Shown here: one piece after another, positions 1,291 to 61,950 of the stretch | Layout: each line of letters starts with the position of its first letter | Position numbering within the stretch: the first letter of the stretch is position 1 | Source of the DNA: an uncultured Thermococci archaeon | Lineage (GTDB): Archaea > Methanobacteriota_B > Thermococci > Methanofastidiosales > B48-G16 | Reading direction: 5' to 3' | DNA: 64,000 bases | NCBI GenBank assembly: GCA_964595645.1 | Contig: CAZQQT010000003.1 | Location: 1-64,000 of the forward strand | The notes under the pieces: generated by a model | What the model was told of the DNA's origin: nothing | Seen by the model: only the letters and a program-made list of their open reading frames with translations | Database searches by the model: none | Translations under genes and position numbers: made by a program

Positions 1291-1530
1291 AAGTAACTGT
1301 AACAACATAGTACACTTCCATGGGGATTTATCACACAAACAAGACACTGAGAAATTTGTAAGCGTATTAGCAGGGTAAAGGCCCAAAATATGCGATTTTC
1401 ACATACTTATTTTTTATGTATTTTATGAGTGTTAGTTAAATCGTAAATAGAGCCATTTTTATCCTGTAGATCTCACCACTTTTCTCTACGGCGATCGGAT
1501 CTTAATTACTATGAATTGTAGTAATTTCTT
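1291..1530 (+). repeat. IR-A copy 1: ~240-bp noncoding element; inverted copy at 61708..61950
   Basis: By-eye alignment to the reverse complement of 61708..61950 gives about 80% identity, with blocks identical over 20-30 nt (aagtaactgtaacaacatagtac; gcgattttcacatactt; gtattttatgagtgttagttaaatcgtaaata; cctgtagatctcac). Both copies end in a hairpin, aattacta-N7-tagtaatt, with different loops. No ORF lies in it. Confidence 0.7.
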
Positions 1531-1600
1531 AAAGATAAGCTTCACAAAGTCCATGAAACCTTAAGAAAAATAAGAGCGTTGAATAAGCTATTAGAAAAGA

Positions 1601-1807
1601 AAAAACTATTTATAGAATGAAAAGAATAGTATAACGATCAGGATGAGTAAAAAAGAGGAAGAAGGCATACGAGAGTTATACACATATCTTACTGACAACA
1701 AAGATAAGATGAGTGAGGAAGAGTACAGGGAGTTACAGGCGGATCTAAAAAAGACATTACTCCATGCACATAAAGAGAATAACATCTCAGATGAGTTTTT
1801 TGAAGAA
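1601..1807 (+). repeat. IR-B copy 1: 5' region plus first ~55 codons of the 1643..2500 gene; inverted copy at 56078..56283
   Basis: Near-identical DNA (about 95% by eye) from about 42 nt upstream of the ATG (aaaactatttatagaatgaaaagaatagtataacgatcaggATG) through codon ~55, ending at gatgagttttttgaaga. Confidence 0.8.
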
Positions 1808-2500
1808 TATCATGGAAAGCTAAAGAAGTTGGAAGAGAAAACGGAAATAAAAATCTGTCCACAGTGTTGGCATGATAATAAGCGAGATTCTGTGTATTGT
1901 GAAAACTGTGGATACAAGTTTGAAGAAATAAAAGAGGAGAATAAAAGGATCTCTTTGAAAAAAATCCTTCCTGTGGCCACCATTATAGTACTTATAGGGG
2001 TAGCGCTATACTTTACGTTACCTTGGGGCGAGACTCCCGAAACAACAATACCAACGACCACAGCACCTACCACCACATCAGTATCAATATGGACGACAGC
2101 TCCAACAACACCCGCCATTACGACTGCAAAGCATGATGATTTAGCATTCGTAAACTGGATGGACAGGATAAGTAGTCCGATAATAGCAGATCTTGAAAAT
2201 ATAAGTTACGCAGCAAACATGGAAAGTTTTAATTTACTGAATGAGTACGGCCTTGATCTGTATAATGATTGTAGCGATGCTTTGGATGAGATCGATGAAT
2301 ATGATGTATCACCAAAGTTAGGACCGGTACAACGAGAGTTTAGATTGGCTCTTTTAAATTATAAAAATGCTGGTGCAATATTGGCCGATGTGGGACCATA
2401 TGACACTAAAAAAATGGAAAGGGCTACAGACTACATGGAAACTGGAATGACACATATCAATGTAGCAAATGAATATATTGAAGAACATTATGAAGGGTAG
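1643..2500 (+). CDS. zinc-ribbon / single-TM / Thr-Pro-stalk surface protein (family member 1, carries the N-terminal module)
   Basis: 285 aa. N-terminal ~60-aa module MSKKEEEGIRELYTYLTDNKDK..., zinc ribbon CPQCW-x11-CENCGY, TM helice ILPVATIIVLIGVALYF, stalk TTIPTTTAPTTTSVSIWTTAPTTPAITT, then a C-terminal ~130-aa domain. Confidence 0.7.
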   Translation: MSKKEEEGIRELYTYLTDNKDKMSEEEYRELQADLKKTLLHAHKENNISDEFFEEYHGKLKKLEEKTEIKICPQCWHDNKRDSVYCENCGYKFEEIKEENKRISLKKILPVATIIVLIGVALYFTLPWGETPETTIPTTTAPTTTSVSIWTTAPTTPAITTAKHDDLAFVNWMDRISSPIIADLENISYAANMESFNLLNEYGLDLYNDCSDALDEIDEYDVSPKLGPVQREFRLALLNYKNAGAILADVGPYDTKKMERATDYMETGMTHINVANEYIEEHYEG

Positions 2501-2575: not shown

Positions 2576-2767
2576 ATGGCTGAAAAATATTGTAGGAACT
2601 GTAAGCAGATGGTGACTCCCACACAGGGAACAAACCTGATTGTGTTCATCATTTTGCTTTTCTTCTTTCTTGTTCCTGCATTTATTTACCTTTTTTGGGC
2701 GGAAGGAAAGGCAGGAAAATGTCCGATCTGTGGGAGTAAAAATTGGGGAACACCACCAAAAGAGTAA
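2576..2767 (+). CDS. small zinc-ribbon membrane protein
   Basis: 63 aa. CRNC ... CPICG pairs flank a TM helix (LIVFIILLFFFLVPAFIYLFW). Confidence 0.45.
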   Translation: MAEKYCRNCKQMVTPTQGTNLIVFIILLFFFLVPAFIYLFWAEGKAGKCPICGSKNWGTPPKE

Positions 2768-2906
2768 CATCATGCAGTGTAGAAACTCAAGAATGCGCAA
2801 AATCAAAAGCTTTATTAAGGATCATATTCATAGTAACATGGAGATAGAGGGTATTTTCTAAAATAGAAACTTTAAAAAATCGTAAGAACTGAACCGAGGG
2901 TAAATA

Positions 2907-2991
2907 TGCGGGGGAGGGGATTCGAACCCCCGAACTCCTACGAGAATGGATCTTGAGTCCATCGCCTTTAACCTGGCTCGGCAACCCCCGC
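2907..2991 (-). tRNA. tRNA-Leu (anticodon CAA)
   Basis: Reverse complement reads GCGGGGGTTGCCGAGCCAGGTTAAAGGCGATGGACTCAAGATCCATTCTCGTAGGAGTTCGGGGGTTCGAATCCCCTCCCCCGC. It has a 7-bp acceptor stem, anticodon stem ATGGA/TCCAT with loop CTCAAGA (anticodon CAA), a long variable arm and a GTTCGAATC T-loop. No CCA is encoded. Confidence 0.85.
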
Positions 2992-3071
2992 AGGGGATAG
3001 TATTAGTGTGTATGCAGAGTTAAAAAATCTTGCGTTGTGAAAATGGATAAATAAAAAAGAGAAATATAACC

Positions 3072-27074: not shown

Positions 27075-27091
27075 AAACAGAGGATTTCGCT

Positions 27092-29374: not shown

Positions 29375-29403
29375 GTAATACCTCGATAATAAAAAAAGAA
29401 GCT

Positions 29404-36391: not shown

Positions 36392-36414
36392 GGAACGAAA
36401 ATGGAGGAAATACT

Positions 36415-37701: not shown

Positions 37702-37836
37702 ATTTGTCCACTAATCCATGTACATAAATATCTCTTTTGTGTACACAAGTTCTTATATACATGTACACGCATATAAACTTTTGGTAGACAAAGAATAAAT
37801 CTTTGTCTATAACAAAAAATTGAAGGAGGAAAAAAA

Positions 37837-37995: not shown

Positions 37996-37996
37996 A

Positions 37997-39454: not shown

Positions 39455-39510
39455 AAAATCTCCTTTTTTTTTATTTGTCATTTTTTTTGGTCCACAAAGT
39501 CGTGATATTA

Positions 39511-40181: not shown

Positions 40182-40182
40182 T

Positions 40183-42063
40183 ATGTCACTTAATAAAAAA
40201 ATCATAAAAGTGGATCTCACAAAGAAAAAAATAAACAAAGAGAGACTACCAAAGAAATTTTTCGAAAATTATCTTGGTGGAAGAGGGATGGGTGCAAAAA
40301 TTCTTTTCGAGGGAGTCAGTGAGACTACAGAACCTCTTTCTCCAGAAAATATAGTGATTGTGTCTACCGGGACGCTGGCAGGTACATTTGCTCCAGCATC
40401 AGCTAGACTCACGATCACATCTAAATCTCCCGAAACGGGTATCTACTGCAAAAGTAGCGTAGGTGGTCATTTTTCTCCAGAATTAAAATTTGCAGGGTAT
40501 GATGGCATTGTGATTTCTGGAGCTTCTGAAAATCCTGTTTATCTTAATATAAGAGATGATCTGGTTGAGATAAAAGATGCAACACATCTGTGGGGCAAGG
40601 ATGTACGCAAAACGAATGCTATACTGAAAAGAGAACTTGAAGATAAAAAAATCAATGTGCTCTCAATTGGTCCTGCAGGCGAAAATCTTGTGAAATATTC
40701 CTCGATCGTAAGTAATATATATAGACAAGCTGCAAGAGGGGGAATGGGCACTATTTGGGGATTTAAAAAACTTAAAGCTATAGCAGTAAGGGGTACAACA
40801 CCTTTGAAAGTTGCAAATCCCTCTCAATTCAAAAAAATAGCGTTGAAAGCAAGGAGGTCAGTGAAAAATGATCAGGATAGATTCTATCGCTATTTTTATT
40901 TTGGAGCAAACAGGGGACTTGTAGGGGCAAACGAGGTGGGATTTAACCCAACTAAAAATTTCCAGACTACTTACATGAAAAATGCTTATCCTACAGGAGG
41001 GGAATATATCCGCGAAAAATATATAGTACGAGAGAATGGATGTGGGTCGTGCGTTCTCTGTTGCGGACAGTCTTATGAAATTGATGATGGCCCCTTTGTC
41101 GGCACACATTCTGAAGGTCCAGAATGGGAAGCAGGAAGTTCATTCGGCGCGAGGATTTTCAATAACGATCCAGAAGTAGTCCTAAAAGCTAATGAGATAT
41201 GCAATATTAATGGTCTTGACCTCTCTTCAGCAATGAGTGTGATAGCGTTTGCAATGGAATGCTACGAGAACGAATTGTTGACTAAAAAGGATACAGAGGG
41301 ATTTTCCTTAGAATGGGGTAATACGGACACTGTACTAGAGCTCTTAAGAAAAATAGCGGAGAGAGAAGGTTTTGGAGATTTTCTCGCAGATTCAATTAAA
41401 GAAGTTTCAGGAAAGATAGGCAAAGAATCAGAAAAATATGCAATCCAAATCAAAGGACTGGGGCTTACAAGTGTTGATTTAAGATCAACTGTCCCATACG
41501 CTCTTGCCTTTGCGGTCAATCCTCGAGGAGGAGATCACTTACACACAGAAATAATTTGCCAGTTTGGTGGAACACCAGAGCATGAAGAAATCGCAAATAG
41601 AATAAGTGAAAGCTCCAAAGGAGCAGATCGTTTCTCCTTTAAAGGAAAGGCAAAAATGGTGAAGTATCACGAAGAAATTTGTTGCGCTTCAGATTGTTTA
41701 GGCATCTGTTTCATGCACACTCTTTCTTCACATAGAGTAAGTCCTGAACTTCTCTCAGGCATGTTTGAGAGTGCTACAGGTATTCCAATGAGCACAGGAA
41801 AGCTTCATAGAGCATGTGAAAGGATAGTGAATATAGAGAGGATGTTCAATGTGCGAGAAGGTTTGGGGAAGAAGGACGATACATTACCAAGGCGATTTTT
41901 CGATGAATCAGTGCCAAATGGGCCAGCAGAAGGATACAGAATACCTAAAAATAAATTTGATGAACTGCTTCAACAATATTACAGGATACATAGGTGGAAT
42001 TCTAGTGGAGTCCCCAAAGAAGAGACGTTAAAGAAACTCGAACTCGAAGAGTTAGTAAAGTAA
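40183..42063 (+). CDS. aor: tungsten-type aldehyde:ferredoxin oxidoreductase (AOR family)
   Basis: ~626 aa from ATG 40183. AOR N-terminal domain (FFENYLGGRGMGAKILFEGV), cluster-ligand region CGSCVLCCGQ, C-terminal pterin-binding domains. Confidence 0.9.
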   Translation: MSLNKKIIKVDLTKKKINKERLPKKFFENYLGGRGMGAKILFEGVSETTEPLSPENIVIVSTGTLAGTFAPASARLTITSKSPETGIYCKSSVGGHFSPELKFAGYDGIVISGASENPVYLNIRDDLVEIKDATHLWGKDVRKTNAILKRELEDKKINVLSIGPAGENLVKYSSIVSNIYRQAARGGMGTIWGFKKLKAIAVRGTTPLKVANPSQFKKIALKARRSVKNDQDRFYRYFYFGANRGLVGANEVGFNPTKNFQTTYMKNAYPTGGEYIREKYIVRENGCGSCVLCCGQSYEIDDGPFVGTHSEGPEWEAGSSFGARIFNNDPEVVLKANEICNINGLDLSSAMSVIAFAMECYENELLTKKDTEGFSLEWGNTDTVLELLRKIAEREGFGDFLADSIKEVSGKIGKESEKYAIQIKGLGLTSVDLRSTVPYALAFAVNPRGGDHLHTEIICQFGGTPEHEEIANRISESSKGADRFSFKGKAKMVKYHEEICCASDCLGICFMHTLSSHRVSPELLSGMFESATGIPMSTGKLHRACERIVNIERMFNVREGLGKKDDTLPRRFFDESVPNGPAEGYRIPKNKFDELLQQYYRIHRWNSSGVPKEETLKKLELEELVK

Positions 42064-42076
42064 AAAGGTGATCAAT

Positions 42077-42787
42077 ATGAGAATAAAAATTGTATTGCCG
42101 GTACCACATAATATGTGGAATGATCAAATACTTGCGAGCTGCAAGGAGGCTGCAAGTCAAAAGGCTGAAATTGAATTAGTGAACACTCAACATGGGGCAG
42201 AAACGTTAGAAGGATTTTATCACGCTAGTTTTGCTGAAAGAGACACGATTAATGAGATAATACAGGCTGAAAAAGACGGGTACGATGTTGTAGTGGTATG
42301 GTGCACTGCTAATGTAGGGGTAGAAGCAGCAAGGGAAGTAGTAAAAATACCTGTTGTTGGTATTATGGAGGCTGCACACTTATTGGCGATGTTACTCGGA
42401 CGAAGATTCTCAGAACTAGTTTCAGTAAAAAATGTAGTGGTGAGGCATGAAAGGAACGCAGAAATTCTCGGTTCCAATTCGAAACTTGCTTCTGTAAGAG
42501 AAATTGCGCTGCCAGTTAAAAAATTCCATGAAAATTTGGATTTAACTTATAAAAAGATGTTTGAAGCGGGAAAAAAAGCGATCGATGAGGACAATGCAGA
42601 TGTACTTGTACTTGGCTGTGGCGCAATGCTCGGAATAACTGATAAATTGAGTAAGGAGCTCGGCGTTCCAGTTATTGAACCTGGCAGTGCAGGCGTACAA
42701 ATGGCCGAAATGCTTGTGCATTTACATAAAGCTCACAGTAAAAAAGCGTATCCACTCCCCCTTGATGATATAAAGGTGATTAAATGA
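42077..42787 (+). CDS. Asp/Glu/hydantoin racemase superfamily protein
   Basis: ~236 aa from ATG 42077. Two-domain pattern (VVVWCTANVG ... IPVVG and VLVLGCGAM ... GVPVIEP), as in hydantoin racemase / EutA / maleate isomerase relatives. Confidence 0.55.
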   Translation: MRIKIVLPVPHNMWNDQILASCKEAASQKAEIELVNTQHGAETLEGFYHASFAERDTINEIIQAEKDGYDVVVVWCTANVGVEAAREVVKIPVVGIMEAAHLLAMLLGRRFSELVSVKNVVVRHERNAEILGSNSKLASVREIALPVKKFHENLDLTYKKMFEAGKKAIDEDNADVLVLGCGAMLGITDKLSKELGVPVIEPGSAGVQMAEMLVHLHKAHSKKAYPLPLDDIKVIK

Positions 42788-43779
42788 CAATACTAAAATA
42801 TGCAAAACTTGGAAGTTATGTAGTAAAAAAGTTGGCGAATATAGCTCCTAATGAAACTGTATTACTTTTAGGAGATACAGGAAGTAACAAATCAATGATG
42901 GATGCCATAATGTCTGCATCTATAGGGTTAGGTGTGGAAGTACAAATGCTCATGTATCCTGAGAGAAACACCACCAATGTCGAACCGTCAAGAGCAATTG
43001 CCGAAGCAATGAAAAATTCGGATGTCATAATTGATCTCTCAGTAAACTATTTTATTCATACCCAAGCGTATGATGATGCTCGCACAGCGGGTGCTCGGGC
43101 ACTTGTTACGATACCGCCAGGAATAGAAGAGTATATAAATGCAGGAGTTGTGGGGATAAATTATGAAAAAATGGTTAAAGAAGGCCAGATAATTGCCGAT
43201 CTATTTGAAAAGTCTAAAAAATGTAAAGTAATATCAGAAGAAGGAACTCATTTAGAAATGAACCTTGGTGAGAGACCTGCAGTGCTGAGAGATGGAATGG
43301 TGGTGAGCAGTGGTGAGATAGATTACTTCCCCGGAGCCCAAGTTTCACTGGCCCCTCTAGAGGATTCAATGAATGGTAAAATTGTCGCGAACGGGTCGAT
43401 ATATCCTCCGATCGGAAAACTTAGCGGAAACGTAGAAATTCAAGTAGAGGAGGGTACTATAGTTGAAATAAGTGGTTCTACAGATGCACAGGAATGGAAA
43501 AAATGGTTAAAGAGTCTAGAAGATAGAGAAATGTACAATATTGCACATTTTAGCATTGGATTCAACCCTAATGCAAATTTGAGAGGATATATCATCGAAG
43601 ATGAGAGAATTAGAGGCTCTGTGACTTGCGGATTTGGTTCTCAGATGATTGATTTCAAAGGAAAGTACGGAAAGGCAAAATCACATACAGATGTTGTTTC
43701 ACTCTTTAACACTGTTTTTTTGGATGATAAAAAGATTGTTGAAAATGGCAACATTCTTGTAGATGATAAAGATGAATAA
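42784..43779 (+). CDS. M29 aminopeptidase-like (AmpS / 2,5-dihydroxypyridine dioxygenase-like) protein
   Basis: 331 aa. N-terminal YVVKKLANIAPNETVLLLGD and C-terminal HFSIGFNPNA segments resemble peptidase family M29. Assigned by eye only. Confidence 0.45.
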   Translation: MTILKYAKLGSYVVKKLANIAPNETVLLLGDTGSNKSMMDAIMSASIGLGVEVQMLMYPERNTTNVEPSRAIAEAMKNSDVIIDLSVNYFIHTQAYDDARTAGARALVTIPPGIEEYINAGVVGINYEKMVKEGQIIADLFEKSKKCKVISEEGTHLEMNLGERPAVLRDGMVVSSGEIDYFPGAQVSLAPLEDSMNGKIVANGSIYPPIGKLSGNVEIQVEEGTIVEISGSTDAQEWKKWLKSLEDREMYNIAHFSIGFNPNANLRGYIIEDERIRGSVTCGFGSQMIDFKGKYGKAKSHTDVVSLFNTVFLDDKKIVENGNILVDDKDE

Positions 43780-44965
43780 GATACGATTGATCGAGAAGGA
43801 GGTAAATAGAAATAAAAATAGAATTATTGGATTAATACAAAAATTAGTAAAAATTCCAAGCTTTTCAGGAGACAAAAAAGGACTATCAGAAATAGCCCAG
43901 ATACTTTCTGACGAGATGAATAAGATTGGTCTTTCTGTGGAATTTATTGAAGCAGAAAAAGGATTACCTAATGTCGTGGGAAGGTTCAATAGCACTGATA
44001 GTAGCAGTCCATGGATTTTATTCAATGGCCATACAGATGTTGTGCCTGTTCAGAACGAAGAGAAATGGATCGTAGATCCATTCAAAGCCGAGATAAAGGA
44101 TGGAAAGATGTACGGTAGAGGCGCATGTGATATGAAGGGAGGGCTTGGAGCGATGGTAGCTGCTTCAAGAATAGTTTTGGATCTTTTCCCTGAATACAAT
44201 GGTAATTTTGTACTTACCGGCACGGTAGATGAAGAAATTGGAGGGGCCATAGGTATGCAATATATCCTGAAGAAAGGAGTGAGGGCAAATATGGGCATTG
44301 TGTGCGAACCGTCAGACCTCATGATTACCAATGTGTGTAAGGGACTTGTGTGGACGAAACTTAAGACTATTGGAAAGAGTGCCCATGGTAGCATGCCTGA
44401 AAATGGTATCAACGCTGTATATAAGATGTCGAAAATTCTTCATGTGTTAGAAGGATATACTTTCGATCGCCCACCTCATGAGATGCTGGGAAGTCCTACT
44501 ATAAATGTTGGAACGGTAAGGGGAGGATCAAAGCCCAACTTAATCCCTGATTTATGCGAAGTAGAGCTCGATATAAGATACTTACCTGATCAGACATATA
44601 AAGAAGTCATGAATGATTTAGAACGTATAATCAACGAACTGAAGGAGGAAGATCCAGAAATAAAGACTGAAATGGATATGATCCGTTATCGTTCCTCTGT
44701 AGAAGTACAAAAACATGAAAAAATAATACAAACTATCGTAGATGCAACAAAAAAGGTTAAAGACGCCCATCCTGGCTTCAAGGGCATGCCTTCACCAGGA
44801 GACAGTGAACATTTAGTTAAAGCTGGCATCCCTAGTGTAATGTTTGGTCCAGGCTCTGAAGATCTATGTCATGTAGACAATGAGTGGATTGCGGTTAATG
44901 AAATTTTGACCGCAGTAAAAATTTATGCAGCAATTATGTTGGAAGGTGAGAAAAATGGAAAATAA
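43763..44965 (+). CDS. M20-family metallopeptidase (ArgE/DapE-type deacylase)
   Basis: 400 aa. NGHTDVVPV, GRGACDMKGG, VDEEIGG and C-terminal SEHL/HVDNE motifs. The start overlaps the upstream gene. Confidence 0.8.
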   Translation: MIKMNKIRLIEKEVNRNKNRIIGLIQKLVKIPSFSGDKKGLSEIAQILSDEMNKIGLSVEFIEAEKGLPNVVGRFNSTDSSSPWILFNGHTDVVPVQNEEKWIVDPFKAEIKDGKMYGRGACDMKGGLGAMVAASRIVLDLFPEYNGNFVLTGTVDEEIGGAIGMQYILKKGVRANMGIVCEPSDLMITNVCKGLVWTKLKTIGKSAHGSMPENGINAVYKMSKILHVLEGYTFDRPPHEMLGSPTINVGTVRGGSKPNLIPDLCEVELDIRYLPDQTYKEVMNDLERIINELKEEDPEIKTEMDMIRYRSSVEVQKHEKIIQTIVDATKKVKDAHPGFKGMPSPGDSEHLVKAGIPSVMFGPGSEDLCHVDNEWIAVNEILTAVKIYAAIMLEGEKNGK

Positions 44966-45956
44966 TATAGATGTTGGTCAAGAAATACTCTATTTGACTC
45001 TAGAAGATATAGAAAGAATACAACTAAATGAAGAAAAAGTGTTTGAGATAGTGGAAGGTGCTTTGGCTGAACACGGAAGAAAAAACTGTGAAATGCCTGC
45101 AAAAATAGGATTACATCCATTGAAGGACACTCTTATGCACGCTATGCCTGCTTTCATTCCTAAATTTAAGGCGTGCGGAATAAAATGGGCGTCATGTTTT
45201 CCAGAGAACCATAAATATAATCTTGCCCAAACATCAGGATTACTTGTTCTCAATGATCAAAACACGGGCTGGCCTATCGCTGTGATGGACGCTATCTGGA
45301 TTACTGCTAAAAGAACTGCTGCTGTTACAAGAGTTGCATGCAAATACCTGGCAAGAGAAGATTCTGAGCAGCTTGGCATTATAGGTACTGGTGTTCAAGG
45401 AAACGAACATATAAAAGTGCTACCCAAAGTATTACCAAATCTTAGGACAATAAAAGCATACGATATGCGTGCCGATGCGAGAGAAGAGTTTGTGAAAAAA
45501 TACAATAACGAACTAGATTGCAATGTTGAAATAGCATCTAATTATAAAGAAGCTGTTGCAGATTCTGATGTAATAGTTTCTGCTACTGCCATTCTTCAGA
45601 AACCTGATCCGCAAATTAAAGATAAATGGATCAAGGAGAGAGGCGTGTTTATTGCCCCTGTTGATTTTGATTCGTTATGGGAGTTCGCTACCATGTCACG
45701 AATGGACAAATTCCTTGTAGACTCGATTGATGAAATGAATTATTTTGAAAGCATTGGCTATTTACCTCATGGACTTCCTCCCTCTCTCCATGGAGAAATA
45801 GGAGAGGTGGTTGCAGGATTAAAACCAGGTCGAGAAACAGATGAAGAGAACATTATGGACATGAACATAGGTATGGCAGTAGAAGACATGCCTGTGGCAA
45901 AAGAACTTTATAGACAAGCATTAAAAAATGGAATAGGCAAAAAACTTCCTCTTTAG
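44955..45956 (+). CDS. ornithine cyclodeaminase / mu-crystallin family protein
   Basis: Start MENNIDVGQEIL at 44955 (SD ggaaggtgag). OCD pattern with Rossmann GIIGTGVQG and NTGWPIAVMDA. Confidence 0.8.
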   Translation: MENNIDVGQEILYLTLEDIERIQLNEEKVFEIVEGALAEHGRKNCEMPAKIGLHPLKDTLMHAMPAFIPKFKACGIKWASCFPENHKYNLAQTSGLLVLNDQNTGWPIAVMDAIWITAKRTAAVTRVACKYLAREDSEQLGIIGTGVQGNEHIKVLPKVLPNLRTIKAYDMRADAREEFVKKYNNELDCNVEIASNYKEAVADSDVIVSATAILQKPDPQIKDKWIKERGVFIAPVDFDSLWEFATMSRMDKFLVDSIDEMNYFESIGYLPHGLPPSLHGEIGEVVAGLKPGRETDEENIMDMNIGMAVEDMPVAKELYRQALKNGIGKKLPL

Positions 45957-46232
45957 ATTTTCTTATAAAGAGCTAAAAGTTTAAATGATAAAGAATAGCA
46001 TTGTGCAGATAAAATGTATTTTAAACGAGAGATGATAAAGGTATTTGTATGCAAAACTAACGAAACGTAAGAAGACACTGTGATAATCGCCTGCCTACGT
46101 GAAACATTCTATGAGAGATATCCTATATATATCCAAGACTAAAAATTGTAGCCATACGCATCATTGATCCTATCATAGCTACTGTTATAATGATGCAGAT
46201 TCATCGTACATACAATATAGAGGGGATTTATT

Positions 46233-52010: not shown

Positions 52011-52076
52011 GTCCTCGACGATGGAGCCACACCCCTACGAAAGCTTTTTAAATTGATTTCTGTTAGAGGATACCAT

Positions 52077-52151
52077 GCTCCGGTAGTGTAGACCGGTCAA
52101 TCATTCCGGCCTTTCGAGCCGGTGACTCGGGTTCAAATCCCGGCCGGAGCA
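52077..52151 (+). tRNA. tRNA-Glu (anticodon UUC)
   Basis: GCTCCGGTAGTGTAGACCGGTCAATCATTCCGGCCTTTCGAGCCGGTGACTCGGGTTCAAATCCCGGCCGGAGCA. 7-bp acceptor stem, anticodon stem CCGGC/GCCGG with loop CTTTCGA (anticodon TTC), T-loop TTCAAAT, discriminator A, no CCA. Confidence 0.85.
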
Positions 52152-52470
52152 TATTTACCCTGCATTTAATGCTCTCTGCTCTTTTTTTCCTTTTTTCCAG
52201 AAAGTATTTCCTATCTGTATGTTACTATGAACATAGTCCTTGATAAAGCTTTCGATCGTGGTCATTCTTGAGTTTCTATACTTCGTGATATGTATTATCT
52301 CACTCACAGAGATCGTGTCATATTCGGGCTCTCAGCGGTTCATATGCGACCTGTAGGATCCGAGAGAAGGGATTTATGACACTCTCCAACTGTAAGGTAC
52401 CAGAAGATCAATATCGCATTATCTTGTTTCGAAATACTTGGAGATCTGAAACTAATTTTAGATCGTATTT

Positions 52471-54408
52471 TTAAAGTTTCTCTAATCCACCTTCCTTTAT
52501 CTTTTTAGAATGTATCTTATCGGTGAAATATTCTTCTCCTTTCTCCCAAATTGTACTAATAGGCCCCATTAATCCGACAATCAAGGCAATGAGGAGAGGG
52601 AGAAACGTGGCTACATTCCGAAATAAATCCCATTCTTTATTGATTATACAATATACTAGTGGCAAGGAAAAAATTAGTATATAGCAACCTTTAAAAAACA
52701 GTATATATTTTTTAGCAGATTTTTTAGATGTTTTTCTTAATCTTTTTTTAATGCTTTCAATTTTTTCGAGCCACTCTTCATCTTTTTCTTTTTCTTTTTT
52801 AGAGATCTCTTTATCCAATTGTTCCGTGAATTCTTTTTCTTTTTCTTTAACTTTGCTTTTAACCCTCTTCTCTGGTAGTTTAGAAGCTTTTTCAATTTCT
52901 TCTAAGGCAAAATCTGGAGTAATCTCATCTAAATCACTCTCATCCATACCACTTAATGCATCTTCTATATAATTTTGGTAAAATAGCATTGAAAGCTTCT
53001 TGTCGTCCACTTTTTCTTCTTTTTTTAAAGTTTGAAGAGCATTATAAAATTTATCCCAAACTCGCCTGTTGACAAAGAGATCACGAGAATAAGTTCCAAT
53101 TATTGATTTGAGAGGAGGGTTAACATTCGGATCTTTTAACCATAAAACATTTGCTAGCAACCTGTCCAGAATGATTTCACATACAGTTCCCCTTTCTTTA
53201 TGTCCCATCCCTATAAAGTTAAATCTACTAAGTTTATGATCCGAAGTCAAAAAGAATACTTTCGCATTCTCTAATTTTCTAACTGGTTCCTTTCTAAATT
53301 CTTTAATCTTTTCAATGATAGCAATATCATGATTCTGATGAAAGGTGTTTTGGGAACCCTTCCACATACTCATCCGATCTCTGAGCCCATCATTGCACGG
53401 TCTGTACGCCTTTAGGTCTACATCAGTCCGTTCTATAGCTATTTCAAGTCTACGTAAGGTATTTCCGATCTCCATTACAAATTCTCTGGCGTCTGTTTTT
53501 CTCCAGCCTTTTCTCTTTAGACTACTATAAAGCGAATTAACTTTAATACTAGCAGGATAACGGTGAGCTTTTGTAATATAACCACTGATAACTTTACAAA
53601 TTTCGTTTATAGTAAAGTCAAATATTTTAAGGCTAAATCCAAATTCCTTAAGTAAGTTAAAAAGCTCTTTTGCAGGGTCATTGAACTCTGGACTGTGAAG
53701 ACCCAATACAAAAAAGGCAAAATTAGTATCTAAGAAAACTTGGCAATGTTCAAATTTTTTGGTTCTCATTTCAGTAATATCGGAAGTGTTTTCAACATGC
53801 AAAACCACTGAGATAACTGATCCTAGAACCATATCTTGTAGGATTTTATATTTTTCAGGTTTTTGTCTCTCCGCGAGTTTGATGTATTGTATTAAGAGAC
53901 GTTCCCGATCTTTTACTTCTTTTGAGATGGACAGTTCACTTATATTGGCAGAGGGGTTCATAAATTCTATGAGAGGATCAATATTTCCACAAAGAAAGGA
54001 AAGAAGTAGATCATAGATCTGTTCTTGAGTTAAAGAAACATTTTTCTTTCTAAAAAATTTTTCTAAATCTCCAATCAACGAATTAATCCTTCTATTAACT
54101 TCCTTATCAGTTTCAAGTCTAGATAAATACTCAAATCCATTCTCAGTGGGTTTATATTTTTTTTCAGTTTCTTTTTGTGTTATAAAATCTTTTTCTATAG
54201 CCCTATCCAAAATACTCCTGAGAACATGAAGTGGTATTTTTAAATCAAACTGTTTCTTTAATTGCCTTTGAATAGTTTTTAGACCTGAAAACTTATCTTC
54301 TGAGAATGTTTTTATAGCGAATGGCCAAAAACAATCAATATAGTCTCCCCCCTGATCATAAAGAGATTTTATAAGGGCATACGTGTAAATCAACCTTGTC
54401 ATTCTCAC
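52471..54408 (-). CDS. large hypothetical protein (N-terminal alpha-helical/wHTH-like region, PIN-like motif, C-terminal TM helices)
   Basis: 645 aa, AT-rich. Central VFLDTNFAFFVLGL resembles the first acidic strand of PIN-like nucleases. Lys/Glu-rich coiled segment, then two C-terminal TM helices (YILIFSLPLVYCII, FLPLLIALIVGLMG). Confidence 0.55.
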   Translation of the reverse strand: MRMTRLIYTYALIKSLYDQGGDYIDCFWPFAIKTFSEDKFSGLKTIQRQLKKQFDLKIPLHVLRSILDRAIEKDFITQKETEKKYKPTENGFEYLSRLETDKEVNRRINSLIGDLEKFFRKKNVSLTQEQIYDLLLSFLCGNIDPLIEFMNPSANISELSISKEVKDRERLLIQYIKLAERQKPEKYKILQDMVLGSVISVVLHVENTSDITEMRTKKFEHCQVFLDTNFAFFVLGLHSPEFNDPAKELFNLLKEFGFSLKIFDFTINEICKVISGYITKAHRYPASIKVNSLYSSLKRKGWRKTDAREFVMEIGNTLRRLEIAIERTDVDLKAYRPCNDGLRDRMSMWKGSQNTFHQNHDIAIIEKIKEFRKEPVRKLENAKVFFLTSDHKLSRFNFIGMGHKERGTVCEIILDRLLANVLWLKDPNVNPPLKSIIGTYSRDLFVNRRVWDKFYNALQTLKKEEKVDDKKLSMLFYQNYIEDALSGMDESDLDEITPDFALEEIEKASKLPEKRVKSKVKEKEKEFTEQLDKEISKKEKEKDEEWLEKIESIKKRLRKTSKKSAKKYILFFKGCYILIFSLPLVYCIINKEWDLFRNVATFLPLLIALIVGLMGPISTIWEKGEEYFTDKIHSKKIKEGGLEKL

Positions 54409-54610: not shown

Positions 54611-56056
54611 TCAATCCCCAGCGCTTCCGCTTGCTGTCGCTATCACATAGGCTCCAGAGCTTGTAGTTTCTTTGTAGAGATGCTCATCCACATATATTTT
54701 AACTGTTACTGTTCCAGATTTTCCACAGTTCTGAGCAGAGATATACAAGAACTCTCCTCGTTCTGTTTTAAATGTATACTCCCATGGGACACTCACATTG
54801 CTTTCTTGAGCTGTTCCTCCCCCTACAGATGCGTAGGTAACATCCACTTCATCAGCTGTTCCTTCCACAACATACTTTACCCTGTATTCTCCATGCCCTG
54901 GAACTTCTGGTTTCGGTTCAGGCGTTTCTCTGGTAGTGGGCGTTGCAGAAAATTCCCATGAGGCTATGGGGTTGTCTTCTAACTCTTCAATTGTATTCCA
55001 CTCCATTGCCGACGTATAAATATTGACTTTAGCATCTCTGAAATCAATATTGACAGGTACTTCTATTGGTACCCATCCCTCATTTGTTTCATTAGGTTTT
55101 ACATCCCCACCGTAGTAAATGAAATCATCGGAGGCCTGATCCTTTGCTCCATACTTTTCCTCGTAGAAAAAGAATCTATGATAAATTTTACCATCATATT
55201 CTACGGTTACATCCCAAGAGGGAGCCCTTTGTATAGTTTCGTTCTTGTTTCTTTGTTTCACATAGATAAAAAGATACTTCATCCCCTGCGTTGGCTCGAA
55301 ATCAGTACCATAATCTGATCTATACATTGTAAGCTGATCGCACTTTGTTACAGAAATTTCCCATCTTTCTGTTTGTCCTCCGTAGTTTTTCATCTCGTAT
55401 ATTGTACTCTCGCCCAGTTTTAACGTAGGGCCTTTGTTTGGCGAGGGGGTGGTGGTAGGAGCTACAGTGGTGGGGCTTTCAGGCTCTACTCTAAAAACTA
55501 CCATGTGTTCTCCTATTTCAAAATCGTGCTCACCTATCCCTTGAGCCTCAAAATGAACATAATGGTCATTATTATACCCATGAGGCACATCGCTCACATT
55601 TATTTCATCAGTGTATGTAGTACGAGAGCTCATATCTATAATTGGTTTTGTGTACGAGTATGTTAGGGTAGTATCTCCCCTTCCACCGCTATTGTACAGT
55701 TTCAAATAGATCCTAACATTTTCTCCGGGTCTAAACACTTCTTTTTTCAGATACAATCCCCTTAATTCTATATCTGGGGGAGCTGTCGTAGAAGGAGCTA
55801 CTGTGGTAGTGGGTGTGGAGGTAGTCGAGATTGATGTTGTAGGGGCTGGCGTTGTGGTAGAAAGAGTTTCTGGTGTTTCTGCTTCTTCTCCCAAAGGAAA
55901 TACAAGATACACCACTGCAACAAGCACACCGATGGCGATAATTCCCGGTACTATCTTTTTCAACGGGATTCCTTTTTTCTCTTTTACTCCTTCCTCTTTG
56001 TTTCTCTTTATTTCTTCTTTAGTCCTTTCTGTCTTTTTTCCCATCTCTCCCTCCAA
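54611..56056 (-). CDS. TM / Thr-Pro-stalk surface protein (family member 2, body)
   Basis: Likely starts at ATG 56044 (MGKKTERT; SD ggaggga upstream). The listed ORF uses an upstream TTG. TM GIIAIGVLVAVVYLVF, stalk TTTPAPTTSISTTSTPTTTVAPSTTAPP, then a ~400-aa ectodomain. Homologous to 1643..2500 downstream of that gene's zinc ribbon. Confidence 0.6.
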   Translation of the reverse strand: MEGEMGKKTERTKEEIKRNKEEGVKEKKGIPLKKIVPGIIAIGVLVAVVYLVFPLGEEAETPETLSTTTPAPTTSISTTSTPTTTVAPSTTAPPDIELRGLYLKKEVFRPGENVRIYLKLYNSGGRGDTTLTYSYTKPIIDMSSRTTYTDEINVSDVPHGYNNDHYVHFEAQGIGEHDFEIGEHMVVFRVEPESPTTVAPTTTPSPNKGPTLKLGESTIYEMKNYGGQTERWEISVTKCDQLTMYRSDYGTDFEPTQGMKYLFIYVKQRNKNETIQRAPSWDVTVEYDGKIYHRFFFYEEKYGAKDQASDDFIYYGGDVKPNETNEGWVPIEVPVNIDFRDAKVNIYTSAMEWNTIEELEDNPIASWEFSATPTTRETPEPKPEVPGHGEYRVKYVVEGTADEVDVTYASVGGGTAQESNVSVPWEYTFKTERGEFLYISAQNCGKSGTVTVKIYVDEHLYKETTSSGAYVIATASGSAGD

Positions 56057-56241
56057 GGATTTACTTTCTCATAGTACTCTTCAAAAAACTCGTCTGAGAT
56101 GTTATCCTCTTTATGGGTATTGAGTAATGTTTTTTTTAGATCCGCCTGTAACTCCCTGTACTCTTCCTCACTCATCTTATCTTTGTTGTCAGTAAGATAT
56201 GTGTATAACTCTCGTATGCCTTCTTCCTCTTTTTTACTCAT
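56008..56241 (-). CDS. stand-alone N-terminal module ORF (family member 2, head), overlapping the body gene in another frame
   Basis: 77 aa, MSKKEEEGIRELYTYLTDNKDKMSEEEYRELQADLKKTLL... First 40 residues are identical to the N-terminus of 1643..2500. Ends out of frame relative to the downstream body ORF. Confidence 0.55.
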   Translation of the reverse strand: MSKKEEEGIRELYTYLTDNKDKMSEEEYRELQADLKKTLLNTHKEDNISDEFFEEYYEKVNPWRERWEKRQKGLKKK

Positions 56242-56283
56242 CCTGATCGTTATACTATTCTTTTCATTCTATAAATAGTTTTT
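56078..56283 (-). repeat. IR-B copy 2 (inverted copy of 1601..1807)
   Basis: See IR-B copy 1. Identity includes ~42 nt of upstream sequence. Confidence 0.8.
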
Positions 56284-56412
56284 TATATTTTCGAAAAAAG
56301 TTTATAATCTCGGGAGAGATATGGGCGATATGCATCGAGGTTTTAAAGAGACACAAAAAATCTAAAAAAAAAGAAAATATTTATATTTTTTATTTATTTT
56401 ATTCAGGGAAAA

Positions 56413-57489
56413 TCACCATTGTATCTCAAATTCAAAGTCATTTATCTCTACATCCCAACTTTCAGTACTCCCTTCGAATATAAACTTTGCATGTCCCTTT
56501 TCCATATCCAATGCACTAAAAATAACTACACCAGAAGCCTCAGTTCCAGATTTTATTTTTAAAGGGATTGTAGGATAATCTATATAAAGACTCCAATCGC
56601 TAAATTTTGTCTCAAATTGTCTATTTCCCTGTATAGCTACAGCATAAATATCGTAGAATGTTATTTCTTCGTTTCTCTCATTTTTTATTGTGAGATAAAC
56701 TCTTGTCTCGTCTTCTGCCAGTTCAACATAGTCTAAAGTCATTACGTATCCTTTATGATCCAGTGTTTCTCCTACGTTTACTCTCTCCATGGTTGGGGTC
56801 AGGAACTGTTTGGGATCGATTTTTGTAACGCTGTCTGCCGAAATGATCAAATCCCCCATTATATCCTTGCCTTCTATTGTACCTTCAACTCTCACAATTT
56901 CATCGTTTTTCGGTGTATATTCTCCCTCTGTATATACTGTAACACTTAGCCATGTATCATCTTTATCCGGATGGAAATAAAACCCGTACTTACCTTCTTC
57001 ACTCGTTTCTATACCTACTATGCCCATTAAATTGACTTTTGCCCCTTTATACTTTTCAGGGTTTTTAACTGCGGTGTTTCTTAAATTTTCATTTGTAATC
57101 AATTCGATAGGGGGAGATGGTGCAGCCGTTGTCGTTGGAGCAACTGTCGTTGTTGGTGCTGCTGTCGTTGTTGGTGCTGCTGTCGTTGTAGGTTCAGGTG
57201 TGGTGGTAGGAGCCTCTGTCTCTGCTGGTGTTGTCGTTGTTGTGGTACCATTTTCTTCGGTGGGAATACTCAAACACGTGCCAACAACAATTACAAGAGC
57301 AAACAATGTGATTAAAGCCCCTTTCTTCGTTTTGAAGAGGCTACTTAATATTTTTTTGATCGTGGATGTTTTTTGGTTACTTTCAGTCCTTTCTGTCTTC
57401 TCCTTAAAGTTGTATCCACAGTTTTCACAGTACAATGCATTCTCTTCATTTTCTGATCCGCATTGCGGACAAAACTTCTTCTCTCCCAT
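56413..57489 (-). CDS. zinc-ribbon / TM / Thr-Pro-stalk surface protein (family member 3)
   Basis: 358 aa. N-terminal CPQCGSENEENALYCENCGY, TM LITLFALVIVVGTCL, stalk TTTTTPAETEAPTTTPEPTTTAAPTTTAAPTTTVAPTTTAAPSPP, ~240-aa ectodomain ending FEFEIQW. Confidence 0.7.
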   Translation of the reverse strand: MGEKKFCPQCGSENEENALYCENCGYNFKEKTERTESNQKTSTIKKILSSLFKTKKGALITLFALVIVVGTCLSIPTEENGTTTTTTPAETEAPTTTPEPTTTAAPTTTAAPTTTVAPTTTAAPSPPIELITNENLRNTAVKNPEKYKGAKVNLMGIVGIETSEEGKYGFYFHPDKDDTWLSVTVYTEGEYTPKNDEIVRVEGTIEGKDIMGDLIISADSVTKIDPKQFLTPTMERVNVGETLDHKGYVMTLDYVELAEDETRVYLTIKNERNEEITFYDIYAVAIQGNRQFETKFSDWSLYIDYPTIPLKIKSGTEASGVVIFSALDMEKGHAKFIFEGSTESWDVEINDFEFEIQW

Positions 57490-57676
57490 ACATCTTGAAT
57501 GTCTCTTTTTTTATAAATAACTTTTCCCTCTTTCTGAAAGAAACGTTTATAAACTTCAACATCTCTGGAATATTGGAGGGTCTGGAGTGGTACTGTTTTC
57601 AAAGACCTCCCACACCCCTCTCCAGATCCTCCATATCCTCTTTTCAGGGTCCTATTCACTTTTGTTTTTCAACTGA

Positions 57677-58159: not shown

Positions 58160-61100
58160 TTAGTAGTTATTTACTGTCTTTTCAATTGGTAGTACTACCT
58201 CGTTAGATTTAATTTTTTGAATCTGCTCCCTGATGTCATTGTCTTCTTTAATACTATTGAAAATTTCTTTTATCACAGCTAATTTTTCGTCTTCAGATTT
58301 TAAGTTTTCAATGCCTTTTAGATAGGGCTTAACCAATTCCATAAGAGTTGTTTCGAGTTTTTCTTCGAAGTAAAGCTCATAAATGAGAGAATCGATGATT
58401 TGCTCATCGATAAAACGAATGAGCTTTTCCTCTGAGCTTCGACGTTTTTCTGTTTCATTGAGAAAGAGCATATAGGTACAGAGGGTAATAAAAGGCTGTT
58501 GATTTTGGAGGGAGATTTTTTTAACTGGAAGTCTCTTGAAGTCATTAGGATAAAAGTAATACTCTATTCTATGCCTCCTAATTGTATTGAGATAAAACTT
58601 GGCGAATTTTGAGTTTAACACAGTTAGAATGTATTTGAGGTCAAAATTGGATGATATTTTCTCCAATTCATCTCTTGGCTTGTCAGTCCATTTCGTGATA
58701 CTCATAGTGATACTTCGGTTCGAAACAGACTTGAGACTTTCGTATCTCACCATCACATTGATACTATGGTTACATATTATTCCACTCTCATCATAGGTTC
58801 CATCTACCGTAGCTCCACGAATTATTTTGGGGTAGATATACAATTCAGGAAAAGTTGGCCTCCTAATTTTGGTAGGGCATCGTTCAGTATCCCATTCCAA
58901 GTATTTGGTTTTATTAATTGTGTACCTATCAATATATTTGGCCTCTACATAAGGCTTACTATTAATTCTTGTTTCAGTATCAGAAATTAGGTCGTCCTTT
59001 TTAAATTCGCCCTTAGCTTTTTTTTCATGAGCATTTAAAACCATACCAACACTTATAAAGCAGATATTTCCCAATAGCTCTGTATTTTTAAATGCGTCTT
59101 CAAAATCCATCGTGGGAGCTATTCTAAAAATCTTATTTATATCCTCAGATGGCTCAAGCTCTTCAATATTTCCAAAAGAATTAACATGCAAAATCCGCTC
59201 TGTCTTCTCTTCCTTTTCTTTATTTTCTACGATAAGTATAACATTTTCGACGCCCACTCCTCTGAAAATTTCAATATTTTCAAAAAAATCAACTTTTTTT
59301 AAATGATAATTTCCCAAAATAAATTTTTTACTCTTTTTAGCGAATTTTGAGGTATTAAATGACTTTGAAATTATGTATGAGAAAACTCCTCCCTCTGAGA
59401 TCGATTTTAGGCTTCTTTCAATGAAGGCAATGAAAAGATCCCATTTTTCATAAAACGTTTGGTATTCTCCTGTGTCCTCTAACACTTCTCTTAGTCTCTG
59501 ATATGTTTCGTCTTCGTTATCTGCCCGTACGTAGGGTGGATTTCCAATGATGATATCGAATCCTCTACCCTCTTGCGATTTTTTCGGATCGAAAACTTCA
59601 TAAAATTCAAATCCCCAGTGAAAAGGACTGAACTCATCAAATTCTTCTTGCGGAATCTTTATATCCTTAGATCTTAACGCTCTATAAAACTCTAAATCGA
59701 GTAATTCTCTTAATTTTTTGTCTATTTTTTCTATTCTTTTTCTCAAAGGTTTAAGTTCGCTATATTTTGCTTTTTTATACGTATGAACAAGGTTTTCTCT
59801 TTCTTCCAATAATTCATACAGTGAATTTTCCTTGGTCCAGTACTCTAAATTTGAGTGATCTCTATCTTGGAACTTACTGATATCCTTATACCCGACCAGA
59901 GTGTTCCCGCGTCTGAGATTATATTCTATATTTGGCAATGGCTTGATATCTTCTGGTTTATATGAATCTACAAGCCACAGTCATAACCGTAATTTTGTTA
60001 TTTCAATAGCATTAGGATTTATGTCTACGCCATACAAATTCTCTAAAAGAATTATTTTTTTAATAACAGAATCGGGATTTTTTATGTTCAGTTTATTAGA
60101 TATTTTTTTGATTAAATCGAATAATATATGAGCCGCTGCCAGTAAAAAGGCTCCAGAACCACAGGCATTATCACAAACGTTCAGTTTTAGTATGATTTTC
60201 TTCAAAATTTCATTTAAAGTTGTTTCATGAAGTATAAAGATTTCGTCAATGTTCTCAATCAACTCTGTCTCTTTATACTCCTTTTCTTCCTTCAAAAAAG
60301 TGTTTATCCTACCTATTAGACAAGAATAAATAGCATTTTCTGCAATATATCTTGTTATATACTTTGGCGTATAATAAGCACCCGTACCTTTCCTATCGGA
60401 AGCGGTCATCGCCCTTTCGAATATATAGCCCAATATCTCCGGATCTATTGAATCTCCATTGCCAAGAGACTCTTTATGTACAAACTTGAAACTATCCAAA
60501 AAATTGACCAGTTCTCTTAAAATTTCAGCCTTGATTCTGTAATTTGGATTTTTTTTCTCTACGTTCGTCTTGAGAAATAAACTCCCATTTAAGTATGGTA
60601 TGTCCTCGAAATTAGAGTCTATATCTACTCTTTCACTTTCTGGAGTATTCAAAACTCTAAAAAATAGTTGTTTTAATCGATCGTTCATGATATCTTGGTC
60701 TTGCTCAGCCAAATAGGCCAAAATATCTTTTTCGATAATCCCTTTCGATTGGAGAAATTTTATAAAGATCAATCGATCGACAATCACCTGAGCAACTTGC
60801 TCTCTACTTCCCAAATCCTCGATATTGAGGATATTCTGTATCAAACAGTCTTCTTCAGAGATCCGTTGTGTTTTATTCTCTCTATCTTTGTATCTCCCCC
60901 CATGCAACAAAGCGTTATACCATGCGTAAAATCTCTTTGTGATTTCCTCCTCTGTCTTATCAGAGATTACTCTTTCTTTTCCACGTAAAAAATCTTCAAT
61001 TTTTTCATGATCCTCTTTTAAATCAAGTTTTGCTGTTTCCTCACCATTTTTATCTATAAATATCCACGTCAATCCATCTGTAGCTATCCCAAACTCATAG

Positions 61101-61495
61101 TTATCTCTTACTTCGGCTAATCTGAATAATCCCTTTATCTGATTCACTGCACTATCCTTTCCTTTGTACAAATCGGCATTTATCGGTTTAACTTCTGCTA
61201 AAAACATTCTTCCTTCAGAATCTTTTATCCTATAATCCGCTTTTCGTATGGTACCCCTACTTGTTCTAAAATGCCTTTCTGGCAATACTTCCAAGTCTAA
61301 CAAGTTAAAGATTTTTTTAATGATAAATTTTTTAGTAAATTCTTCGGGGTCTATTTCCTCCTCTAAAAAAACAGACAAAAGCTTCCTTTTTTCTTCAAAA
61401 ACCCTTTTTCTTCCGTTAAGAGTCATCCTTTTTCGAATACCAGCTATAATACTTACAATAACATCGTTAGTTAATAGGCTATTTTTATTTTTCAT
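58160..61495 (-). pseudogene. Type IIG restriction-modification fusion enzyme (PD-(D/E)xK nuclease + gamma-class N6-adenine MTase + target-recognition region), interrupted by one in-frame TGA at 59981..59983
   Basis: Upstream part (61495..59984) has the nuclease motif ADYRIKDSEGRMFLAEVKP and MTase motif I CDNACGSGAFLLAA, ending ...NAIEITKLRL-TGA. The same frame continues LWLVDSYKPEDIKP-LPNIEYNLRRGNTLVGYKD ... with MTase motif IV IIGNPPYV and a ~500-aa C-terminal region. The two listed ORFs are in the same frame (all codon first positions = 1 mod 3). The second listed ORF merely restarts at a TTG. Confidence 0.7.
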
Positions 61496-61707
61496 ATACT
61501 CTCAACATCTATCATTTTTCAAATTTTTAAAAGTTTCCCTTATAGCAAACCAAAGTATTCGTATTTCAAAATTCACGTGTATATCAAAGTTTTATGTAGA
61601 GGTTTTGAAATTTTTTTATTTCTACTAATACTTTTTAAAAAATATTGATAAAATTTAACACTCAAATATTTCCCAAGGTCTCAAGGATTTCCATAGGACC
61701 GATCCTA

Positions 61708-61950
61708 AAGAAATTACTACATACCGTAGTAATTAGATACCGATCCCCTTTCAAGGAAAAATCAGTGAGATCTACAGGACAGAAACGGCTTTATTTACGA
61801 TTTAACTAACACTCATAAAATACATGAAAAAGAAGTATGTGAAAATCGCATGTTTTGGGCGTTTACCCTACCTATCACGCTTACGCATTTCTCAGGTTTC
61901 GCTTGTGTGGCAAGGTCTCCCTGGAAGTACTATGTTGTTACAGTTACTTG
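61708..61950 (-). repeat. IR-A copy 2 (inverted copy of 1291..1530)
   Basis: See IR-A copy 1. This copy carries an extra perfect palindrome AGTTACT-TG-AGTAACT at 61942..61957. Confidence 0.7.

Follow-up and report, generated by a model that had tools for sequence, protein, structure and literature searches.

Replacement-type flexible genomic islands for exposed structures are known in aquatic bacteria and in Haloquadratum, and two papers propose virus pressure as the selective driver of such islands (PMC4033161, PMC4535781). Here, we describe a family of genes for putative surface proteins in the window, a 64,000-nucleotide stretch of the chromosome of an uncultured Thermococci archaeon (contig CAZQQT010000003.1, positions 1 to 64,000), which all in-window counts given below cover. 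Three window genes encode a transmembrane (TM) segment followed by a Thr/Pro-rich stalk and an ectodomain, and two of the three loci begin with the same promoter and the same short N-terminal domain, which we call the head. We consider it probable, with moderate confidence, that these genes belong to a recombination-driven variable surface family, in which a copy whose head and body lie in separate open reading frames (ORFs) carries a fixed frameshift giving a free 77-aa head and a head-less anchored 477-aa body. By analogy, the replacement-type flexible genomic island appears to be the closest match in behaviour; bacterial multigene surface families with constant 5' ends also come close.

In the cell-wall island of Haloquadratum walsbyi, the same position holds different surface genes in different strains, and two metagenome sequences related to our loci (L007 and L008) show this pattern. 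Homologous recombination via conserved boundaries and an atypical composition are further points in common with the flexible islands. Unlike in those islands, however, the unit here is a single gene or a few kilobases rather than tens of kilobases, and one recombination anchor, promoter plus head, lies inside coding sequence. Furthermore, replacement is seen here in relatives and not in the source genome, and our islets are without glycosylation or S-layer biosynthesis genes.

The Vlp/Vsa lipoproteins of Mycoplasma and pilE/pilS of Neisseria are multigene surface families with a conserved 5' end. They resemble the present family in having a constant promoter and N-terminus with a variable C-terminus, in concerted or mosaic evolution, and in homopolymer-interrupted members (here, an A9 run in the relative L013). 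In contrast to them, the constant part here is predicted to be a folded cytoplasmic domain instead of a signal peptide, the host is an archaeon, and neither a silent-cassette array nor a site-specific recombinase was found here. The order of zinc ribbon, TM segment and ectodomain is also that of TcaA (NF053815), and gene 1, the third gene and the relative P0038 align to the first ~60 residues of its model. However, the scores are 15.5-20.5 bits against a cut-off of 550 and cover the ribbon and TM segment only, the ectodomains are unrelated, and TcaA has neither a head nor a Thr/Pro stalk; the likeness is architectural only. Some of our ectodomains resemble the extracellular β-domains DUF4352 (PF11611) and MmpS (PF05423), with scores below or at threshold, and these families are uninformative on function. 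The libraries searched contain no description of the head domain or of this way of building a family; systems of this kind are familiar.

Three window proteins and a constant head

Gene 1 (1643..2500, + strand, 285 aa) contains all modules in one ORF: a head (1643-1840, aa 1-66), a CPQC...CENC zinc ribbon (1856-1918, aa 72-92), a TM segment (1964-2020, hydrophobic aa 108-126), a stalk (~2021-2131, 52% Thr+Pro) and an ectodomain (2138-2497). Its ribbon remains below the Pfam cut-offs of DZR/Zn_Ribbon_1 and reaches 17.7 bits against 25 for PF13240, with the CxxC motif present. In the second copy, on the − strand, the head is a stand-alone ORF (56008..56241, 77 aa, P0002), and the body is a gene of its own (54611..56044, 477 aa from ATG as publicly annotated, P0004; 54611..56056 if read from TTG). 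The body consists of a TM segment (55898-55954), a stalk (55769-55885), domain 1 (55490-55768), a Thr/Pro linker (55418-55489), domain 2 (54956-55417), another linker (54899-54955) and an MmpS-like domain (54614-54898). We sought a CxxC...CxxC ribbon motif in the body and found none. The third gene (56413..57489, − strand, 358 aa) has a ribbon (57409-57474, aa 6-27; PF13240, 29.8 bits against 25), a TM segment (57265-57321, aa 57-75), a stalk (57106-57264, 60% Thr+Pro), a first ectodomain module (56800-57105) and a DUF4352-like domain (56416-56799), without a head. The initial annotation, made from the letters of the DNA, had proposed just this plan of three TM-and-stalk proteins, with gene 1 all-in-one, a second copy whose 77-aa head ORF ends out of frame inside a ribbon-less body with its own GGAGG-ATG start, and a head-less third gene, and our analysis bears it out. 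These three are the only Thr/Pro-stalk ORFs in the window, which holds only two heads.

The head DNA of gene 1 (1600-1824) is 95% identical to that of the split copy (56284-56060) over 226 nt (E = 1e-100). Within it, an exact run of 153 nt (1600-1752 = 56284-56132) spans −43 to +110, that is, the TATA box and the first 110 coding bases; identity falls abruptly to background upstream of 1600 and decays gradually downstream. The promoter and short leader of gene 1 (1600..1642, + strand; TTTATA at 1609-1614, −34 to −29 from the ATG) are therefore repeated exactly before the head ORF (56242..56284, − strand; TTTATA at 56270-56275), and the third gene has its own TTTATA at 57511-57516. Judging from the archaeal promoter consensus, these boxes are likely TATA elements. 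At the protein level, residues 1-60 of the head ORF are 90% identical to the head of gene 1 (tblastn), and the tail PWRERWEKRQKGLKKK is read in a frame shifted relative to the body. Gene 1 and the body are 41% identical over 41 aa of the juxtamembrane and TM region with the stalk excluded (E = 2e-7), and gene 1 matches the third gene over the ribbon and linker (E = 4e-14). The similarity thus exceeds low-complexity Thr/Pro composition, the point on which the initial annotation had made its family depend. Each of the three proteins has a single hydrophobic segment with 5-6 K/R on its N-terminal side and 0 K/R and a net acidic charge on its C-terminal side; by the positive-inside rule, all would be single-pass type II proteins (N-in, C-out).

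The ectodomains had also been described as unrelated. BLASTP indeed detects no similarity among them, but two share a weak DUF4352 match: domain 2 of the body (E = 0.02, 15.6 bits) and the C-terminal domain of the third gene (DUF4352/Big_14; for DUF4352, E = 0.006, 17.2 bits), neither of which reaches the cut-off of 25.9. A common fold class is possible for these two domains. The C-terminal domain of the body (~90 aa) scores 18.4 bits with MmpS (PF05423, cut-off 21) in the whole protein and 21.7 bits as an isolated piece of 99 aa, and shares 43-60% identity with the C-termini of secreted proteins from bacteria and archaea (P0005-P0012) to which it is otherwise unrelated. Domain 1 of the body is without a match in Pfam. 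A CARDB-like label for domain 1 was dropped, given the lack of a Pfam match and a BLASTP comparison with P0052 in which only the head is similar. The ectodomain of gene 1 is predicted to be a four-helix bundle (pLDDT ~80), and its fold matches are not significant (best E = 0.29). The first ectodomain module of the third gene is conserved, and the ectodomain is 71-80% identical to P0013 and P0014. As far as sequence comparison goes, the ectodomains look like typical extracellular binding-type domains. In a word-indexed search of 5.8 billion proteins, the sole match of gene 1 was gene 1 itself; a close orthologue of the body, sought in 5.8 billion proteins, was not found, nor was one of its N-terminus. 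Separately, we observed that a collection of 15 billion proteins lacks the exact 358-aa product of the third gene although it includes neighbours from the same contig; the third gene may have been annotated with another start or not called.

We searched 1.84 billion cluster representatives with a head+ribbon+TM profile. Of the 150 best matches listed, ~16 carry the head, and the rest match the generic ribbon only. The nearest relatives of the family come from metagenome-assembled genomes (MAGs) labelled 'Methanomicrobia archaeon' and 'Euryarchaeota archaeon' and from JGI metagenomes. The head is ~66 aa long, and both window copies align over their full length with 10 relatives (tblastn E = 1e-9 to 1e-40); eight columns of the alignment are invariant (I9, Y13, N19, L39, I48, F52, Y56 and K59). 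An AF2 model based on 12 sequences shows a three-helix bundle (helices 2-18, 25-44 and 50-65) with a pLDDT of 90.7 and a pTM of 0.72. We found no match for the head in Pfam, NCBIfam or the PDB sequences. YlaN, bS20 and the MIT domain were rejected as identities of the head, as the best PDB fold matches are non-significant (all E at least 0.3, best 0.33).

The modules found behind the head are diverse. A ribbon-TM-stalk-ectodomain series follows it in P0038/P0016, P0042, P0046 and P0054, and a ribbon-less TM-stalk-ectodomain series in P0048, P0052 and P0050, with intact head-TM fusions in P0048 and P0052. Thus, the ribbon is optional within the family and not its signature. In P0040, the head is fused to a multi-pass membrane domain, and in P0062 to a PMT_2 glycosyltransferase with an F5/8-type C domain. 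Two relatives, P0042 (43.4 bits) and P0015, pass the DUF4352 threshold. Lastly, P0039 and P0043 have a CxxC-TM-CxxC module fused behind the head, with or without the ribbon. Such a module is encoded free-standing next to gene 1, as a membrane mini-protein (2576..2767, + strand, 63 aa) that is 67% identical to residues 93-150 of P0043, a protein with an N-terminal head (E = 2e-23). We therefore count the mini-protein, which also has a weak zf-LITAF-like match (E = 0.027), in the same system.

Recombination in relatives and the islets of the window

The relatives L007 and L008 come from the same metagenome. From their upstream DNA to ~130 nt into the head, they are 97% identical, and across tRNA-Glu(CTC) 98%, whereas the 1.1-1.2 kb between these conserved stretches are unrelated. 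They represent a single locus with two cassettes. The site (L007 2781-3129 / 4356-4482; L008 1-349 / 1464-1590) lies between a DNA-glycosylase-like gene and tRNA-Glu(CTC). P0041 is a mosaic of three parts with 86-97% identity per segment: residues 47-190 are 86-94% identical to the L007 protein and P0042, residues 191-292 are 93% identical to P0052 and absent from L007, and residues 293-410 are 97% identical to L007 and absent from P0052. In P0013 and P0014, the ectodomain of the third gene stands behind a lipobox signal peptide and a Thr/Pro stalk, without ribbon and TM segment, and P0016 combines a head and a ribbon/TM part 51% identical to that of the third gene with a different ectodomain. 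The body and the third gene share the DNA of a KTERT linker (17/18 nt), and in another genome head paralogues or alleles likewise share their upstream DNA. The varied head fusions, the P0041 mosaic, the L007/L008 swap and the lipoprotein-anchored ectodomain agree with the modular, cassette-like diversification that had been proposed for the window genes. The constant unit is promoter plus head, and by these comparisons break-points lie within the head, at the stalk or close to it, and in the flank on the tRNA side. We also noticed that the extended ORF calls of P0041, P0050 and P0052 translate the shared upstream DNA.

Head genes are convergent to a tRNA gene in L001, L007, L008 and L010-L012. 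In the window, gene 1 is convergent with tRNA-Leu(CAA) (2906..2992, − strand), which bounds a left islet of 1.6 kb, and tRNA-Glu(TTC) (52076..52152, + strand) bounds a right islet of 9.7 kb. GC content in both head-gene regions is 33-39%, compared to 44-47% in the core. Both islets thus combine the atypical composition and tRNA proximity by which flexible genomic islands are recognised. A 13-nt trailer, GCATATTTACCCT, is common to the tRNA-Glu(TTC) and tRNA-Leu(CAA) loci.

Each head locus lies between two non-coding flanks, A and B, arranged in the same order. Flank A (left copy, 1291..1536; right copy, 61702..61949) is 83% identical between its paralogous copies over 252 nt (E = 5e-59). Its tblastx similarity is equal in all reading frames, indicating that it is non-coding, and a hairpin, AATTACTA-loop-TAGTAATT, is kept in both copies with differing loops. 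Flank B lies between the cassette and tRNA-Leu on the left (2769..2847) and next to tRNA-Glu(TTC) on the right (52211..52289), and its copies are 82% identical (2769-2847 against 52289-52211). In the right islet, flank A is ~5.4 kb away from the head promoter, and the interval holds a type IIG restriction-modification (RM) gene, a 151-aa membrane ORF and the third gene; a 645-aa ORF lies between the body and flank B. An Rfam scan of the flanks returned nothing beyond the tRNAs, and two sequences give no covariation power. A scan for bacterial-type promoters and terminators, which is unsuited to an archaeon, showed no enrichment.

The frame break and competing explanations

Head and body diverge in frame within 56034..56070 (− strand), a zone that holds an A6 run (56034-56039) and a body-frame TGA at ~56069-56071. 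Relative to the head frame, the body is read in −1, and the head copy at 56008..56241 stops after 77 aa without being followed by a membrane module in the same polypeptide. Every base of the junction, the A6 run included, is the same in an independent Logan assembly of SRR7048220, reported for two samples; the split is thus not an assembly artefact of the deposited genome, and the frameshift is real at the consensus level. The break falls where the high-identity tract ends, at 56060. Downstream of this tract, the body-frame codons TTG GAG GGA GAG ATG GGA AAA AAG align in frame with TTG GAA GAG AAA ACG GAA ATA AAA of gene 1, which points to a net loss of 1 nt near 56057-56066, upstream of the A6 run. 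Since the global alignment shows several small indels at the junction, the lesion is bounded only to 56034-56070. A Shine-Dalgarno-like GGAGG, read from the sequence (56050..56054, − strand), precedes the body ATG (56042-56044) by 5 nt. The body begins with MGKK followed by KTERT, resembling MGEKK-[ribbon]-KTERT in the third gene, including the 17/18-nt match, so that this ATG and its GGAGG may be an inherited start and not a fortuitous one. In the simplest history, a ribbon-less member, or a third-type gene losing its ribbon, would have been put behind the constant cassette and would now be out of frame. A second case is found in L013 (JGI Ga0190285_1001278, ~4132-4140), where a frameshift on an A9 run within head helix 3 splits the head gene and a ribbon-less TM segment and ectodomain continue in the −1 frame, with the same sequence in the JGI assembly and in Logan SRR35109388. 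This A-rich family thus has frame breaks in more than one member. The initial annotation had offered ongoing decay or separate expression of the head as the two possibilities; as a dichotomy this stands, with the frameshift present in an independent assembly and a plausible start in front of the body.

It has to be asked whether the split is instead programmed, with a −1 ribosomal frameshift, transcriptional slippage on the A6 run or a phase-variation switch yielding a regulated head-TM-stalk-ectodomain fusion. The frame relation allows this, as a change from A6 to A7 would fuse the two ORFs, natural ribbon-less fusions exist (P0048 and P0052), and the split head on the A9 run of L013 is an independent second case seen in two assemblies. 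We nevertheless regard it as very unlikely. The head-frame codons at the junction are TGG GAA AAA AGA, in which a search for an in-phase slippery heptamer X XXY YYZ was negative (GAA AAA AGA is not one), and no stimulatory RNA structure was found downstream (minimum free energy −5.7 kcal/mol, z = −0.28 against shuffles). In addition, when the sequence is aligned with gene 1, the indel comes to lie upstream of the A6 run, which is the same in both assemblies; the window thus offers only an invariant A6 as a contingency homopolymer, and the idea of the initial annotation that it is a possible slippage site is not supported. Six adenines are also short for polymerase slippage, which counts against programming. 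A sequencing or assembly error in a really intact gene is conceivable in an A-rich region whose 5' part exactly repeats another locus and may confuse assemblers, and the Logan contig of SRR7048220 ends exactly at the edge of this repeat. The same junction, however, occurs in that separately assembled contig, reported for two samples, the break lies outside the exact repeat (1600-1752 / 56132-56284) and not in a long homopolymer, and the island's other lesion, an in-frame TGA, is of the substitution type and not an indel. We hold such an error to be highly improbable.

The occurrence of the conserved flanks A and B in colinear order at two tRNA genes, the low GC content, the tRNA adjacency in several relatives and the RM cargo could also mean that both loci are remnants of a small tRNA-associated mobile element, with the head genes as cargo for, e.g., surface modification or superinfection exclusion. 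We consider this unlikely. Neither an integrase nor a transposase was found, a search around both islets for att-like direct repeats and terminal inverted repeats detected none, and head relatives sought in 2.9 million viral contigs were absent. Moreover, L007 and L008 are flanked by ordinary genes of the chromosome and differ in the gene body only. As for the objection that there is no real family but a convergent composition of Thr/Pro stalks with generic ribbons and TM segments, Thr/Pro linkers and PF13240 ribbons are common, and the ribbon also occurs on unrelated window proteins. The significant similarity outside low-complexity parts, the common promoter DNA and the colinear flanks refute it, and we leave it next to no probability.

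We return to the recombination-driven family as the probable explanation. In this model, the genes would encode lineage-restricted archaeal surface proteins of type II topology that are shuffled by recombination. A constant 5' cassette would supply an archaeal promoter and the cytoplasmic three-helix head, to be followed by an optional rubredoxin-type zinc ribbon, a TM anchor with the conserved juxtamembrane motif LKKI(L/V)P, a Thr/Pro-rich spacer that is presumably extended and O-glycosylated, and interchangeable globular ectodomains. The Thr-rich linkers of archaeal surface glycoproteins are O-glycosylated, and the head-bearing PMT-type glycosyltransferase P0062 is a suggestive lead on glycosylation of the stalk. 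Members would lodge in variable islets of low GC content, in many cases convergently to a tRNA gene, and there recombination through the 5' cassette and the tRNA-side flank, and probably through stalk DNA as well, could yield new combinations. The right-hand copy would be a member without the ribbon, in which a net 1-nt change of frame, at the edge of a converted tract, separated the head from the body. The head promoter could then drive one transcript, from which both a soluble 77-aa head and, via GGAGG-ATG, a membrane-anchored 477-aa protein would be expressed. The head may serve as a shared cytoplasmic docking or oligomerisation handle. As for the role of the family, we suppose that strain-variable recognition or adhesion at the surface is the likeliest, with virus pressure as a plausible driver. 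The in-frame TGA of the RM gene suggests that the island is accumulating lesions.

Several points weigh against this explanation. Cassette replacement and mosaicism are demonstrated in related metagenome sequences and not in strains of the source genome, and adjacency to a tRNA gene is not universal, as L009, L013, L015 and L016 are without a tRNA neighbour in the DNA available. Both products of the split copy are predicted from sequence and unproven. The exact position of the lesion is ambiguous (56034-56070), and without a close orthologue of the body among the 5.8 billion proteins, the ancestral state of the locus is not reconstructable. The ectodomain folds are weakly assigned, so that the proposed role is something we infer. 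A bolder version appears improbable to us: promoter plus head and the tRNA-side flank would form a dedicated exchange system for surface proteins, functionally analogous to antigenic variation in bacteria, the frame breaks here and on the A9 run of L013 would be reversible switches between head-tethered and head-less states of one surface protein, and the head would be a new cytoplasmic adaptor linking many surface modules, including P0062, to one partner inside the cell.

Neighbouring genes and significance

The RM gene of the right islet (58160-61495, − strand) is of type IIG (MmeI/Eco57I-like) and comprises ~1,096 codons with a single in-frame TGA at 59981-59983. This codon falls in the methyltransferase motif region (KLRL*LWLV) and is probably a TGG-to-TGA nonsense mutation; the in-frame TGA means that the enzyme is likely dead. 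The 645-aa ORF (52471-54408, − strand), also within the low-GC island, has a hydrophobic C-terminus and is without a Pfam or NCBIfam match. We did not adopt a defence label for it, as this would be based on one weak PADLOC match to LeoBC (E = 0.004); it may be a defence gene or another island gene.

The window encodes the archaeal markers RqcH, RLI, a Na+-pyrophosphatase and an aldehyde:ferredoxin oxidoreductase. GC content is also lowered, to 35-40%, in a second stretch (36001-46000), which has a strong positive GC skew and contains genes for a solute symporter, an aldehyde:ferredoxin oxidoreductase, a racemase, an M20 peptidase and an ornithine cyclodeaminase-like protein; it may be another acquired block. 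At 26490-30372, we found a cluster of proteins bearing terminal PF13240 zinc ribbons. Of two adjacent paralogous HEAT-repeat proteins, the first has a C-terminal PF13240 ribbon and the second only a C-terminal CxxC...CxxC motif. The cluster also includes an SPFH/Band-7 protein, which has two ribbons at its C-terminus, and a protein of 404 aa, which has a double ribbon at its N-terminus. In the source genome, the zinc ribbon is a promiscuous appendage, found on HEAT and SPFH proteins and on others.

Neither variable surface-gene loci nor frameshifted paralogues are uncommon, and nothing is overturned by the present case. If our explanation is true, the family would be a compact, sequence-defined example of how exposed proteins are diversified in an uncultured archaeon, built from a constant promoter and cytoplasmic domain with interchangeable anchors and ectodomains, and with the exchange visible as mosaics in metagenomes. 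The head would then be a small new domain suitable for domain databases, and would serve to mark variation at the level of strains, and possible surfaces of virus-host interaction, in these archaea.

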